A stretch of 64,000 bases of DNA from Escherichia coli (GTDB lineage: Bacteria > Pseudomonadota > Gammaproteobacteria > Enterobacterales > Enterobacteriaceae), in the NCBI RefSeq assembly GCF_024298765.1, contig NZ_CP101210.1; one strand, 5' to 3'. Both the position numbers and the translations under genes were made by a program. The notes under the pieces were generated by a model. The model saw nothing but the letters and a program-made list of their open reading frames with translations. It searched no databases and was not told the DNA's origin. Shown here piece after piece: positions 25,820 through 30,736 of the stretch (its first letter is position 1; each line of letters starts with the position of its first letter).

Positions 25820-26815
25820 GTGACCGTGAGAGCACTACTGACCCCTGAAATTGCCCCGCGTATGGGGATCGTATTGTTCAGACCAGGTTCAGAGCTGATG
25901 CCCTTGTTTATGCAGGGGCGTGTCCTGCTGGAGCCTGAGCCGGAACGTTATTCATCTTTCGCCAGTGGTGCCGTTCCGGCGGCATCACAACCGCTGGCGG
26001 ATGATCCTGCCGTTCGGGCCGTGTTCCGCAATGAGGCAGTGATCCGTCGTGCTGGTGGCGTGGAATGTCTTGAAAGCTGGTTACTTCGTGAAAAAGGCTG
26101 CCAGTGGCCTCATTCCGGCTGGCACAGCGAGAACATGACAACAATGCGACACGCTCCGGGCGCAATCCGTCTGTGCTGGCACTGCGATAACCAGCTGCGC
26201 GATCAGTTCACGGAACGGCTGGAATCAATGGCAACGGATAACTGTGCCCGCTGGGTGTTGTCTGTTGTGCGTCGGGATCTCGGTTTTGATGACAGTCATG
26301 TTGTGACAATGCCGGAACTGTGCTGGTGGCTGATTCGTAATGATCTGGCGGATGCCTTACCGGAAAGTGCAGCCCGTAAGGCACTGAGATTACCGAAGCC
26401 TGTTGTGCCGTCTGTTACCCGGGAAAGTGACCTTGTGCCTTCGGTTCCTGCCACCAGCATCATCCAGGATAAGGCGAAAAAGGTGCTGGCGCTGAAAGTG
26501 GATCCGGAGTCGCCGGAGTCTTTTATGTTACGCCCAAAACGTCGCCGCTGGGTTAATGAAAAGTACACGCGCTGGGTTAAGACACAGCCGTGTGCATGTT
26601 GTGGAAAGCCCGCTGATGATCCCCACCACCTGATAGGTCACGGTCAGGGTGGAATGGGAACAAAAGCGCATGACCTCTTTGTGTTGCCTTTGTGCAGAAA
26701 GCATCACGACGAGCTGCATGCGGATACCGTGGCATTTGAAGAGAAGTATGGCTCTCAGCTGGAGCTGATATTTCGTTTTATCGATCGTGCGCTGGCAATT
26801 GGCGTATTGGCGTAA
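25820..26815 (+). CDS. DUF968 (YdfU-like) prophage protein with C-terminal Cys/His cluster
   Basis: C-terminal CACCGKPADDPHHL...CRKHHDELH motif. Confidence 0.55.
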   Translation: MTVRALLTPEIAPRMGIVLFRPGSELMPLFMQGRVLLEPEPERYSSFASGAVPAASQPLADDPAVRAVFRNEAVIRRAGGVECLESWLLREKGCQWPHSGWHSENMTTMRHAPGAIRLCWHCDNQLRDQFTERLESMATDNCARWVLSVVRRDLGFDDSHVVTMPELCWWLIRNDLADALPESAARKALRLPKPVVPSVTRESDLVPSVPATSIIQDKAKKVLALKVDPESPESFMLRPKRRRWVNEKYTRWVKTQPCACCGKPADDPHHLIGHGQGGMGTKAHDLFVLPLCRKHHDELHADTVAFEEKYGSQLELIFRFIDRALAIGVLA

Positions 26816-26828
26816 GTGGAGAACGAGC

Positions 26829-27581
26829 ATGAACCTTGAAGCCTTACCAAAATATTACTCCCCAAAATCTCCAAAATTGAGCGATGACGCACCGGCGACA
26901 GGCTCTGGTGGTTTAACAATTACGGATGTAATGGCTGCGCAGGGGATGGTGCAGTCGAAAGCACCGCTTGGGTTTGCCTTATTCCTGGCAAAAGTTGGTG
27001 TTCAGGATCCTCAGTTTGCGATTGAAGGTCTGCTCAATTACGCGATGGCACTGGATAACCCGACATTGAATAAATTGAGTGAAGAAACCCGGCTACAGAT
27101 CATTCCTTACCTTGTGAATTTTGCCTTTGCTGATTATTCCAGGTCTGCGGCAAGTAAGGCTCGCTGTGAGCATTGTGCTGGTACTGGATTTCATAATGTA
27201 TTGCGCGAGGTGGTGAAACACTCCAGAAGCGGGGAATCTGTTATCAAGGAAGAGTGGGTGAAGGAACTATGTCAGCATTGTCATGGTAAGGGAGAAGTCA
27301 GCACAGCGTGCAGAGGGTGTAAGGGTAAAGGTATTGTCCTGGATGAAAAAAGAACCCGGCTTCATGGTACGCCTGTTTATAAGATTTGTGGGCGTTGCAA
27401 TGGTAACCGTTTTAGCCGTTTACCAACCACACTGGCGCGGCATCATGTCCAGAAGCTGGTACCAGACCTGACGGATTATCAGTGGTACAAAGGATATGCA
27501 GATGTCATTGATAAACTGGTTACAAAGTGCTGGCAGGAAGAAGCATATGCAGAGACACAATTGAGAAAAGTGACAAGATAA
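26829..27581 (+). CDS. Late-gene antiterminator Q (zinc-binding)
   Basis: CEHCAGTG...CQHCHGKG...CRGCKGKG Cys clusters; immediately upstream of a promoter plus terminator pair and the lysis genes. Confidence 0.7.
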   Translation: MNLEALPKYYSPKSPKLSDDAPATGSGGLTITDVMAAQGMVQSKAPLGFALFLAKVGVQDPQFAIEGLLNYAMALDNPTLNKLSEETRLQIIPYLVNFAFADYSRSAASKARCEHCAGTGFHNVLREVVKHSRSGESVIKEEWVKELCQHCHGKGEVSTACRGCKGKGIVLDEKRTRLHGTPVYKICGRCNGNRFSRLPTTLARHHVQKLVPDLTDYQWYKGYADVIDKLVTKCWQEEAYAETQLRKVTR

Positions 27582-27612: not shown

Positions 27613-27715
27613 TTGCATTTTTCAAAAAATCTGGTTAGGATTCTCCTAACGATGGGCTTTGTATGTCTGCCGTTAACGAAATCATAACAAACCTCGCTTC
27701 GGCGGGGTTTTTGCT
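27613..27715 (+). promoter_or_regulatory. Late promoter PR'-like with downstream tR'-like terminator (Q-utilisation region)
   Basis: ttgcat -35-like hexamer at 27613; terminator hairpin cctcgc-ttcg-gcgggg plus ttttt at 27690-27715. Confidence 0.55.
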
Positions 27716-27731
27716 TTTCTGGAGGTCAATA

Positions 27732-27989
27732 ATGCAGGGCGAAAAGCAGCAGCCATATTTTTTTAACCCTGGTATGACTGTTGAACAGCTTGAAGACTGG
27801 CTGGAGCAGCAAAAGCTTCATCTAAGCCGCTATAACCGTCTGGTAAAAGAAAAAGCAGAGCTTGAAGAACGGCTCAGTGATATTTCTGTGGAAATTGAAC
27901 GAATGTCTGCTGGTGGTTTTAACGGAAAGTTGAGTTTCCCCTGGGAGTCAAGTTCGCTTCTGAGAAATCATCAACAGGGTAGTGTTTGA
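27732..27989 (+). CDS. Hypothetical late protein (85 aa)
   Basis: GGAGG 6 nt upstream of ATG 27732; first ORF after the tR'-like terminator. Confidence 0.4.
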   Translation: MQGEKQQPYFFNPGMTVEQLEDWLEQQKLHLSRYNRLVKEKAELEERLSDISVEIERMSAGGFNGKLSFPWESSSLLRNHQQGSV

Positions 27990-28068: not shown

Positions 28069-28455
28069 ATGTCCGATCCGATTTCCGGTACTGGGCTGGC
28101 TGGTGGTGCCCTGACGGGTGCCAGTGTTTATGGACTGCTGACCGGAACTGATTACGGCGTTGTATTTGGCGCATTTGCAGGGGCTGTATTCTACATAGCA
28201 ACAGCAGCAGATCTGAGTGCATCGCGTCGACTGGCATATTTTATCGTGTCATATATTGCCGGGATTCTTTGCTCTGGGTTGGTTGGCTCCAAGCTGGCGA
28301 ACTTGACCGGATACAGTGATAAACCTCTGGATGCTATTGGTGCCGTAATCGTCTCTGCTTTAGCCGTTAAAATCCTGACGTTCCTGAATAATCAGGATAT
28401 CGGCTCGCTGGTGGCGCTCATAACGCGCCGGGGAGGTTCAGGTGGAGCTAAATGA
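28069..28455 (+). CDS. Putative holin (membrane protein, lysis cassette)
   Basis: 128-aa hydrophobic ORF directly upstream of the endolysin. Confidence 0.6.
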   Translation: MSDPISGTGLAGGALTGASVYGLLTGTDYGVVFGAFAGAVFYIATAADLSASRRLAYFIVSYIAGILCSGLVGSKLANLTGYSDKPLDAIGAVIVSALAVKILTFLNNQDIGSLVALITRRGGSGGAK

Positions 28456-28723
28456 CCCGACAGCAACTATAAATGCGCTGTTATGTGCTTGTGTTGTTAT
28501 TACTCTGATGTTTTATCGTCGTGGTGATTCGCGGCATCGTCCTTGGGTTTCACGTTTAGCCTGGCTGATTACTGTTACATACAGTGCTGTTCCGTTGGCC
28601 TATCTCTGTGGGATTTATCCTCATTCCTCATGGCCCATTATCGTGGCGAACACTATTTTTCTTTCCGTGCTGGTGGCCGTCAGAGGCAACGTTGCACGTC
28701 TGGTTGATCATCTGAGGCACTAA
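28442..28723 (+). CDS. Second small lysis-cassette membrane protein (holin/antiholin candidate)
   Basis: 93-aa ORF with TM segments, overlapping the neighbouring genes. Confidence 0.5.
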   Translation: MELNDPTATINALLCACVVITLMFYRRGDSRHRPWVSRLAWLITVTYSAVPLAYLCGIYPHSSWPIIVANTIFLSVLVAVRGNVARLVDHLRH

Positions 28724-29337
28724 TGAACCAACAATTATTTCAAAAGGCGGCTGGTATTAGCGCCGGGCTGGCTGCGCGCTGGTTTCCGCACATTGATGCG
28801 GCGATGAAGGAATTCGGCATTACAGCACCAGCGGATCAGGCAATGTTTATCGCTCAGGTAGGCCATGAGTCGATGGGGTTTAGCGCCGTAGTTGAAAATT
28901 TTAACTACACACCATCTGCGCTGGTGGCGACGTTCGGAAAGAGGATCACACAGCAGCAGGCTGATGCCCTTGGCAGAACATCCGGACATGCAGCTCGTCA
29001 GGATGCTATTGCCAATCTGGTGTATAGCAACCGACTGGGTAACAAAGCACCAGGTGATGGCTGGAAATATCGTGGTAGAGGATTAATTCAAATCACTGGC
29101 CTCCATAATTATCGCATCTGTGGCGCGGCGCTGAAGTTAGATCTGGTGACTTCACCTGAACAACTGGAACAGGAACTACAGGCTGCGCGCTCAGCTGCAT
29201 GGTTCTACACCTCTAAAGGTTGCATGATCTACGGTGCCGATATTAACCGTGTTACGCGCATCATTAACGGCGGTCTGAACGGTATTGAGGATCGTAAGGT
29301 CCGATACAACAAGGCGCGGGCGGCGCTGCTGGTATGA
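28723..29337 (+). CDS. Endolysin, glycoside hydrolase family 19 (chitinase-like lysozyme)
   Basis: 204-aa ORF with GH19-like motifs (FIAQVGHESMGF, KYRGRGLIQITG). Confidence 0.75.
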   Translation: MNQQLFQKAAGISAGLAARWFPHIDAAMKEFGITAPADQAMFIAQVGHESMGFSAVVENFNYTPSALVATFGKRITQQQADALGRTSGHAARQDAIANLVYSNRLGNKAPGDGWKYRGRGLIQITGLHNYRICGAALKLDLVTSPEQLEQELQAARSAAWFYTSKGCMIYGADINRVTRIINGGLNGIEDRKVRYNKARAALLV

Positions 29338-29726
29338 AGATGAGTTATTGGGCGCTCATTTTAACGTTTATTGCTTGTGTCGCTGGTGGTCTTGTCTGGT
29401 CAGCGAATCACTATCATGGAAAGTTTCTGGAGGAGCAGAAGCGTGCTGATGCTGCGGAACAGCGAGCTGATTCTACTGAGGCTATCACCGCGAATGTTCT
29501 GCGTACTATGGCAATAACGAACATCATTCAGGAGGCGAATCAACATGCAAAACAGCAGATCGCACTGGAGTCACAGAGAACCCAGGAAGATATCAAAGTG
29601 GCTGTTGCGGATGATGATTGTGCTTCACGTCCTGTGCCTGCTGCCGCTGCTGACCGGTTGCGGAAGTACGCGAACAGTTTACGTCCAGGTTCCGGTAGTT
29701 CCGTTACCAGCCAGCCTGACGGCTGA
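29334..29726 (+). CDS. i-spanin (Rz-like), N-terminal TM plus coiled coil
   Basis: 130-aa ORF with N-terminal TM and charged helical region; follows the endolysin. Confidence 0.7.
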   Translation: MKMSYWALILTFIACVAGGLVWSANHYHGKFLEEQKRADAAEQRADSTEAITANVLRTMAITNIIQEANQHAKQQIALESQRTQEDIKVAVADDDCASRPVPAAAADRLRKYANSLRPGSGSSVTSQPDG

Positions 29727-29880
29727 AACCCCTCAGCCTGATTTACCTGATCATTTTACGTGGGGCTCGAGCTTAGATCTGAATGTCGCCTTGTTGTCTG
29801 CATTGGCGCAGTGTAATACCGATAAAGCTGACATCAGAAGGATTGAAGTTGAGCGTGGTCACATCATGCAAAAAAAATGA
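29611..29880 (+). CDS. o-spanin (Rz1-like) lipoprotein, overlapping Rz in another frame
   Basis: Lipobox LLPLLTGC after MMIVLHVLC; proline-rich; starts inside Rz and extends 154 nt past its stop. Confidence 0.65.
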   Translation: MMIVLHVLCLLPLLTGCGSTRTVYVQVPVVPLPASLTAETPQPDLPDHFTWGSSLDLNVALLSALAQCNTDKADIRRIEVERGHIMQKK

Positions 29881-29972
29881 TGTTAACTTTGTTTTGTTCC
29901 TTGATTTGATATGTGATGGCCCAATAGATACAAAGCACCTGATTTTGGTGACTCTTTTAAAGGGCTTTACAC

Positions 29973-30293
29973 ATGAAAGATGGTATCTATTTTGTTGTTT
30001 TCAGAAGCAATCAACGTGATTTTGGTAATGGTACCGTAGTTGTCAAAAACAATGCAGTAAATGGCGGAGATTTTGGTTTTACGTATCAGGGAAAAATTGA
30101 CGGTAGCCAACTTATTCTGCGCGTATCGCAGCATGATTTAAATGTCACCTCGGTTTTCCCTGGGGTAAAGAACTTTGAATTGAGTCTTTCTTTGCAGGAA
30201 CGAGGACGTGATTACCTGTTAAATGGATCTGTGGTCGGAATGCCTCAGATGCAAATTTCAATTAGTGCAAAATACATTGGTGATCTGATTTAG
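29973..30293 (+). CDS. Hypothetical moron protein (106 aa), possibly GrlR-like
   Basis: AT-rich by eye; MKDGIY...GGD...YQG pattern resembles GrlR-family proteins as far as I recall (unverified). Confidence 0.4.
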   Translation: MKDGIYFVVFRSNQRDFGNGTVVVKNNAVNGGDFGFTYQGKIDGSQLILRVSQHDLNVTSVFPGVKNFELSLSLQERGRDYLLNGSVVGMPQMQISISAKYIGDLI

Positions 30294-30299
30294 TTTATC

Positions 30300-30335
30300 G
30301 AGATGATAATTGAACCGCCTCCGGGCGGTTTTTTA
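30300..30335 (+). terminator. Rho-independent terminator after the moron gene
   Basis: gaaccgcctccgggcggtttttt. Confidence 0.6.
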
Positions 30336-30385: not shown

Positions 30386-30736
30386 ATGCCGCCACGAACC
30401 CCGAAAGCCTGCCGTGTTCGCGGCTGCCGCCATACCACTACTGACCCTTCAGGCTACTGCGAAAGCCACAAAAGCGAAGGCTGGAAGCAATACAAACCTG
30501 GACAATCCCGTCATCAGCGCGGCTACGGTTCGAAGTGGGACAGTATCCGCGCTCGTGTTCTGAAGCGTGACAAAGGCCTGTGTCAGTTATGTCTGCGTGC
30601 TGGTGTGGTGCGTGAGGCGAAAACTGTTGACCACATCATCCCTAAAGCGCATGGCGGCACTGATGCCGACTGTAATCTGCAGAGTCTGTGCTGGCCGTGT
30701 CATAAGGCGAAGACGGCCCGTGAACGGTTGAAGTGA
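30386..30736 (+). CDS. HNH endonuclease (packaging-associated)
   Basis: 116-aa ORF with Cys pairs and DHIIPKAHGG...N HNH motif; directly upstream of the terminase small subunit. Confidence 0.75.
   Translation: MPPRTPKACRVRGCRHTTTDPSGYCESHKSEGWKQYKPGQSRHQRGYGSKWDSIRARVLKRDKGLCQLCLRAGVVREAKTVDHIIPKAHGGTDADCNLQSLCWPCHKAKTARERLK

Follow-up and report, generated by a model that had tools for sequence, protein, structure and literature searches.

A predicted overlapped spanin gene pair of the SfV type in the lysis cassette of an Escherichia coli prophage

Experiments on spanins have essentially all been done on Rz/Rz1 of phage lambda; complementation and cysteine-mutant tests exist for PseT.3/PseT.2 of phage T4, and the pairs of T7 and P2 are termed experimentally tested (Kongari et al. 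2018, PMC6139136). In that curated survey of 528 systems, overlapped genes were the commonest spanin architecture (228 cases, as compared with 182 embedded ones), with LysB/LysC of phage P2 as the paradigm and (SfIV, SfV) as an overlapped i-spanin family. SpaninDB (PMC6139136) lists Rz1 of phage SfV as overlapped, in the +1 frame, with an overlap of 182 nt, and places it in the "Mu" o-spanin family. As gene callers are biased against overlapping genes, 196 of the 528 genomes had no annotated o-spanin CDS (PMC6139136).

The locus studied here lies in a 64,000-nt stretch of E. coli DNA (contig NZ_CP101210.1; hereafter the window), where the following genes stand in a row:

28069-28455, + strand: first holin-family gene, 128 aa (Pfam Phage_holin_8, E 1.2e-34)
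28442-28723, + strand: second holin-family gene, 93 aa, with a GTG start and a strong SD (Pfam Phage_holin_3_7, E 7.3e-20)
28723-29337, + strand: GH19 endolysin gene (Pfam Glyco_hydro_19, E 6.7e-07)
29334-29726, + strand: i-spanin (Rz-like) gene, 130 aa (PHROG 214 "Rz-like spanin", E 3.4e-47)
29545-29880, + strand: o-spanin (Rz1/LysC-like) gene in the +1 frame, 111 aa as the likeliest full precursor (Pfam PF23793 LysC)

An earlier note on this DNA had described an Rz-like ORF with a lipoprotein gene starting inside it in the +1 frame, and ORF analysis found both the coordinates and the frame to be correct; the same holds for its claim that the o-spanin ORF runs 154 nt past the Rz stop (29726 to 29880). 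From ATG 29545 the +1 frame is open to the stop ending at 29880, and the gene overlaps that of the i-spanin by 182 nt before the 154 nt that lie beyond the Rz stop. Whichever start is taken (29545, or 29605/29611), the o-spanin gene begins within 29334-29726 in a frame other than that of Rz and ends beyond the Rz stop, as the overlapped class of Summer 2007 and Kongari 2018 demands. An overlapped rather than embedded architecture, as the note had proposed, is borne out by this frame geometry, by the family matches and by the curated class of SfV. The +1 frame and the 182-nt overlap of SfV are exactly the geometry obtained here from ATG 29545, so this type is already present in the curated classification with which the note had suggested a comparison. 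By these sequence features the locus is predicted to encode an Rz/Rz1-type two-component spanin of overlapped architecture, in which the o-spanin is an outer-membrane lipoprotein precursor. Very probably the pair is the two-component spanin of an SfV-like E. coli prophage, serving the final step of the holin/endolysin/spanin lysis pathway.

The o-spanin matched the Pfam family PF23793, "Rz1-like lysis system protein LysC", with 67.6 bits (gathering threshold 27) and an E value of 8.8e-19 over profile positions 2-68 of 69, as well as PHROG 456 (E 1.4e-27). The o-spanins of P2 (LysC), Mu, SfV and APSE-1 also match PF23793. Over the full mature domain, identity was 66% to SfV, 63% to SfIV, 45% to APSE-1 and 44% to Mu, and tblastn gave 44.9% for D108 and only 35.7% for ENT47670. 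For its "Mu" o-spanin family, SpaninDB asks that members share 40% identity or more across 40% or more of the periplasmic domain; in these comparisons the o-spanin reaches that level with most members, not with all, as the value for ENT47670 illustrates.

For the i-spanin, the only Pfam match was a sub-threshold one to DUF2570 (16.7 versus 26.6 bits), and its assignment therefore relies on PHROG and on pairwise homology (65% identity to SfV Rz, 33% to Mu gp23). An NCBIfam scan of both spanins returned nothing meaningful, the Rz protein giving only sub-threshold histidine-kinase noise. Hydropathy, composition and PHROG 214 agree on an N-terminal TMD with type II topology and a mostly helical periplasmic domain: the best 19-aa Kyte-Doolittle window (mean 1.96) places the TM segment at residues 6-24, with Lys2 on its N-terminal side, and the periplasmic part is helix-prone, with a single Gly/Pro within residues 28-95. 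Alignment of the homologues revealed a conserved motif near the C-terminus, C(x)2-3PVPxxAxxxLR, which reads DDDCASRPVPAAAADRLRKY in the window and contains Cys96. The i-spanin ATG overlaps the endolysin stop (ATGA).

Among the relatives, SfV (and likewise SfIV, SfII and Klebsiella phage Mulock) has the same Rz size of 130 aa and agrees in the lipobox and in the placing of the conserved Cys, and SfV shares the +1 overlapped geometry, with a 182-nt overlap and a 157-nt extension. Its cassette differs, however, having a single holin and a 158-aa endolysin where the window has two holin-family genes and a GH19 endolysin. The Mu gp23/gp23.1-type pair is also overlapped in the +1 frame; its o-spanin shares PF23793 and the invariant LTWG...QCN.DK motif, although its mature form is longer (85 aa), and its i-spanin gp23 carries CxxRPVPAxAADRLR, the motif also seen in the i-spanin here. 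P2 LysC matches the same PF23793 profile (64.9 bits) and has a similar mature length of 76 aa, but it belongs to another SpaninDB o-spanin family and has 13% Pro and four periplasmic Cys, compared with 8% and one here. Since pairwise BLASTP between the o-spanin and P2 LysC was not significant (E 0.75), the kinship with P2 rests on the shared Pfam profile. The logic of lambda Rz/Rz1 is the same, in that a type II inner-membrane protein and an outer-membrane lipoprotein encoded in the +1 frame come last in the cassette. Lambda Rz1, however, is fully embedded in Rz, and its mature form of 41 aa is unstructured, with 24% Pro and a penta-proline stretch (PMC6139136); similarity between lambda Rz and the i-spanin here is confined to the TMD. 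Membership of the lambda Rz1 o-spanin family was considered and rejected, as the gene extends beyond Rz instead of lying within it, no two Pro are adjacent, Pro makes up 8% and no lambda-Rz1-type family was matched in Pfam.

The part of the o-spanin gene beyond the Rz stop is the following:

29728-29877, + strand: non-overlapped extension, encoding mature residues 24-73 (alignments, pN/pS, AlphaFold2)

The family's most conserved stretch, LTWGxSLxLNxxLLxALGQCNxDKAxIRxIE, which includes the invariant Cys52, is encoded in this extension, as is a predicted long alpha-helix (residues 35-72). When its 50 codons were compared with those of nine relatives, pS was 0.77-1.0, i.e. saturated, and pN was 0.21-0.42, which indicates a protein-coding sequence under purifying selection in the o-spanin frame. 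The coding bias whose absence the earlier note had named as a reason to abandon its proposal is thus present. It has to be asked whether the ORF running past the Rz stop could be a fortuitous open frame and Rz the sole real gene, as the Rz-only annotation of identical or near-identical DNA in phage SKA5, Salmonella phage 118970_sal3 and some RefSeq genomes would have it. We regard this as extremely improbable: o-spanin CDSs are commonly left uncalled (196 of 528 genomes, PMC6139136), the PF23793 match (E 8.8e-19) spans residues 13-81 and hence the extension too, and the extension keeps its amino acids while its synonymous sites are saturated. Moreover, 129 phage records, SfV, SfIV, SfII, Mulock, Mu, D108 and APSE phages among them, gave tblastn matches with the same +1 frame intact and the protein conserved, at identities as low as ~36%. 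On the sequences compared, the fortuitous frame is already refuted. A non-coding or terminator region was likewise ruled out as an identity for the extension, by the conserved frame and by a search of 29726-29972 in which no terminator-like hairpin was found.

Two descriptive terms in the earlier note did not hold. It had called the o-spanin unusually long, but the mature protein of 73 aa lies at about the 60th percentile of the overlapped class, whose periplasmic domains have a median length of 70 aa (range 42-167, n=190 transcribed, PMC6139136 Table S2); within its own family, mature lengths are 67-85 aa and the genes extend 136-202 nt past the Rz stop. It had also called the protein proline-rich. 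There are 6 Pro in 73 residues (8%), as compared with 10 in 41 (24%) in lambda Rz1, 13% in P2 LysC and an average of 4.4% in the long ORFs of the window. All six lie within the first 34 mature residues, never more than one in a row, and the C-terminal 39 residues are devoid of Pro. The AlphaFold2 model of the mature protein (12-sequence alignment, mean pLDDT 84) is extended over residues 1-34 and forms one long helix over residues 35-72, in agreement with the 49% helix predicted for SfV Rz1 (PMC6139136 Table S2). The o-spanin is best described as a Pro-containing linker (residues 1-34) followed by a conserved C-terminal helix, rather than as proline-rich.

Several starts are available for the o-spanin ahead of its lipobox:

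29545, + strand: ATG giving the 111-aa precursor, with AGGAGG 8 nt upstream (SD -10.3 kcal/mol)
29605 and 29614, + strand: further candidate starts, TTG and ATG respectively (SD of the alternative starts -2.3 to -3.3 kcal/mol)
29611-29613, + strand: alternative ATG giving 89 aa, the earlier choice (SD -2.3 kcal/mol)
29647-29661, + strand: lipobox L-L-T-G-C by pattern match, with the Cys codon at 29659-29661

The lipoprotein signal was judged by the PROSITE-type pattern rule only. The lipobox context is VLCLLPLLTG|C, and VLCLLPLLTGC matches the core pattern [^DERK]6-[LIVMFWSTAG]2-[LIVMFYSTAGCQ]-[AGS]-C. The lipobox LLPLLTGC reported in the earlier note is therefore present, and its reservation that a lipoprotein signal might be lacking does not apply. 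The lipobox Cys is invariant in 12 homologues and would be lipid-modified as residue 1 of the 73-aa mature o-spanin. Residue +2 is Gly and not Asp, which predicts sorting to the outer membrane. Each protein has one periplasmic Cys, Cys96 in the i-spanin and mature Cys52 in the o-spanin, and both are invariant in the homologue alignments. Periplasmic Cys suited to homotypic intermolecular disulfides were found in 507 of 528 spanin systems (PMC6139136), and the single invariant Cys in each spanin here would fit this rule.

The mature lipoprotein is the same whichever start is used, and it is the signal peptide that depends on the choice. Classical PROSITE lipoprotein rules place the Cys within positions 15-35 and require K/R in the n-region. 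These ancillary rules give outcomes that depend on the start: ATG 29545 puts the Cys at position 39, just beyond that range; ATG 29611 leaves the first seven residues devoid of Lys/Arg; and TTG 29605 satisfies every one of the classical rules. Other evidence separates the candidates. The SD of ATG 29545 equals those of the holin genes in strength, and an in-frame start exactly 38 codons before the lipobox Cys is found in nine of 11 Mu-family relatives (ATG in eight, GTG in one). In APSE-1, this -38 codon is the sole candidate start in the open frame, no start codon occurring between it and the Cys. The Rz residues encoded across the -38 start vary among the relatives (H, D, S, N) while the start stays, which suggests selection on the start itself. 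In Mu, the signal peptide starts at -27/-28 or -33 and not at -38. The long form, from the equivalent of 29545, is annotated for SfV, for Mulock (Center for Phage Technology) and in RefSeq, and SpaninDB gives the SfV o-spanin as 112 aa from that start (PMC6139136). We therefore consider ATG 29545 the most likely principal start, with a fair measure of confidence.

The earlier note had given the precursor as 89 aa, which would make ATG 29545 a mere by-product of Rz coding and leave a 16-residue signal peptide from ATG 29611. That ATG exists and would give a protein of this length; a signal of 16-18 residues is nearer the usual length for lipoproteins, the Cys at 39 from ATG 29545 falls outside the classical positions, and a double Met (MM) or a nearby start is kept in the closest relatives. 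SpaninDB, in addition, lists the SfIV o-spanin as 93 aa, a length that fits the equivalent of TTG 29605, two codons upstream of 29611, although its listed coordinates disagree with that length (PMC6139136). Against this stand an SD of -2.3 as compared with -10.3 kcal/mol, the n-region without Lys/Arg, the lack of any start between -38 and the Cys in APSE-1, the -38 start in nine of 11 relatives despite differing Rz residues, and the use of the long form in the SfV, Mulock and RefSeq annotations. We judge the shorter precursor possible but unlikely, and ATG 29545 the likelier start. The -38 start implies unusually long lipoprotein signal peptides of 38 aa, with a basic n-region of ~22 residues. 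A dual-start device, with one precursor from 29545 carrying a highly basic 22-residue n-region and another from 29605-29614 carrying a minimal signal peptide, seems improbable, and the conservation of the -38 start may simply mark one true start. If the device were real, differing export kinetics could tune the arrival of the o-spanin at the outer membrane, loosely like lambda S107/S105.

The genes around the pair form a lysis cassette in the order holin, holin, GH19 endolysin, spanins, so that the pair lies downstream of the endolysin as is usual for spanins; the holin and endolysin assignments are also backed by PHROG families. The two different holin-family genes upstream of the GH19 endolysin overlap by 14 nt, where SfV-type relatives have a single holin, and they could represent a holin/antiholin or a two-holin arrangement. 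The cassette is located downstream of a Q antiterminator gene (26787-27581) and a tR'-like terminator. The latter is a strong terminator-like hairpin, AAACCTCGCTTCGGCGGGGTTT with a T run after it, at 27689-27710 on the + strand, a short way past the Q gene; it is probably the tR' equivalent, read through by Q for the expression of lysis and late genes. A program-called ORF at 27663-27989 overlaps this hairpin, and relatives are annotated with a shorter 85-aa ORF that starts past it.

A chromosomal location and the frequent decay of prophages raise the question of whether the pair is a decayed remnant of a defective prophage that has lost its lysis function. All cassette ORFs are nevertheless intact with coupled start/stop junctions, the deposited record of phage SKA5 (from poultry viscera, with E. 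coli APEC as host) matches the 2.4-kb segment 28000-30400 at 99.8% identity, and intact terminase, head and tail genes flank the cassette. A 24-kb stretch around the spanins is ~99% identical to prophages of other strains with HK97-type head and contractile-tail genes. A decayed remnant is therefore very improbable, and an intact spanin pair of an SfV-like prophage is the reading we retain. Many complete E. coli chromosomes, that of ETEC H10407 among them, carry the 601-nt spanin region with 100% identity.

We observed a mosaic (recombination) junction inside the overlapping spanin genes, at ~29690-29740. Upstream of it, the sequence is 92% identical to SfV (207-nt match) and 98% to Salmonella phage 118970_sal3 (1.7-kb match); downstream, the C-terminal half of the o-spanin is still homologous as a protein, with saturated synonymous sites. 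The junction is deduced from the o-spanin gene being far more diverged from SfV beyond ~29740 than in its overlapped part.

Between the lysis cassette and the HNH/terminase genes lies a GrlR-like gene (29973-30293, + strand, 106 aa), with 26.7 bits to Pfam GrlR against a cutoff of 26.8, a PHROG 2483 match at E 6e-53 and the RefSeq name "GrlR family regulatory protein". A promoter-like site of its own and a strong terminator-like hairpin accompany the gene (29966-29993 and 30312-30331), in the manner of a moron, and it is missing from this position in SfV and SfIV. This is a prophage-borne homologue of the regulator of LEE type III secretion, and no adjacent GrlA was seen in the stretch examined. 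An HNH endonuclease gene (30386-30736, + strand) follows directly upstream of the P27-family small terminase and large terminase genes, an adjacency that is usual in HK97-like packaging modules.

Our analysis established the structure of the genes, the families they belong to, their conservation, the selection acting on the extension and the setting in the cassette; for export, lipidation, complex formation and membrane fusion we infer a course by analogy with lambda Rz/Rz1. In the lambda scheme (PMC6139136), the holin would permeabilise the inner membrane and the endolysin would degrade the peptidoglycan. The N-terminal helix of the i-spanin would hold it in the inner membrane, with its helical domain reaching into the periplasm, and the o-spanin, once exported, would receive its lipid on the lipobox Cys, lose its signal peptide to signal peptidase II and pass to the outer membrane. 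As disulfide-held homodimers, on the model of lambda Rz/Rz1, the two would bind each other through their C-terminal parts and bridge the periplasm. Once the peptidoglycan is gone, nothing would keep the complexes from fusing or disrupting the inner and outer membranes, and the phage would be released. Because the o-spanin has a long helix in place of a penta-proline stretch, the details of interaction and fusion may differ from those of lambda. That stretch is mutationally essential in lambda Rz1, and differing interaction and fusion have already been suggested for structured o-spanins (PMC6139136).

The pair is already known as a textbook overlapped spanin of a curated family, and on identical DNA RefSeq correctly names the same protein WP_001181620.1, "lysC: Rz1-like lysis system protein LysC", 111 aa from ATG 29545; as a discovery it carries little weight. 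Its annotation varies: for DNA that is identical or nearly so, H10407 has a call for lysC alone, and UTAK-14, SKA5 and 118970_sal3 for Rz alone (as DUF2570 or Rz), with the second holin gene of 118970_sal3 uncalled as well. The inconsistent spanin calls reflect the bias of gene callers against overlapping genes described in PMC6139136. The practical value of the finding is in annotation, where both genes should be called and the comparative evidence favours ATG 29545 as the start of the o-spanin.
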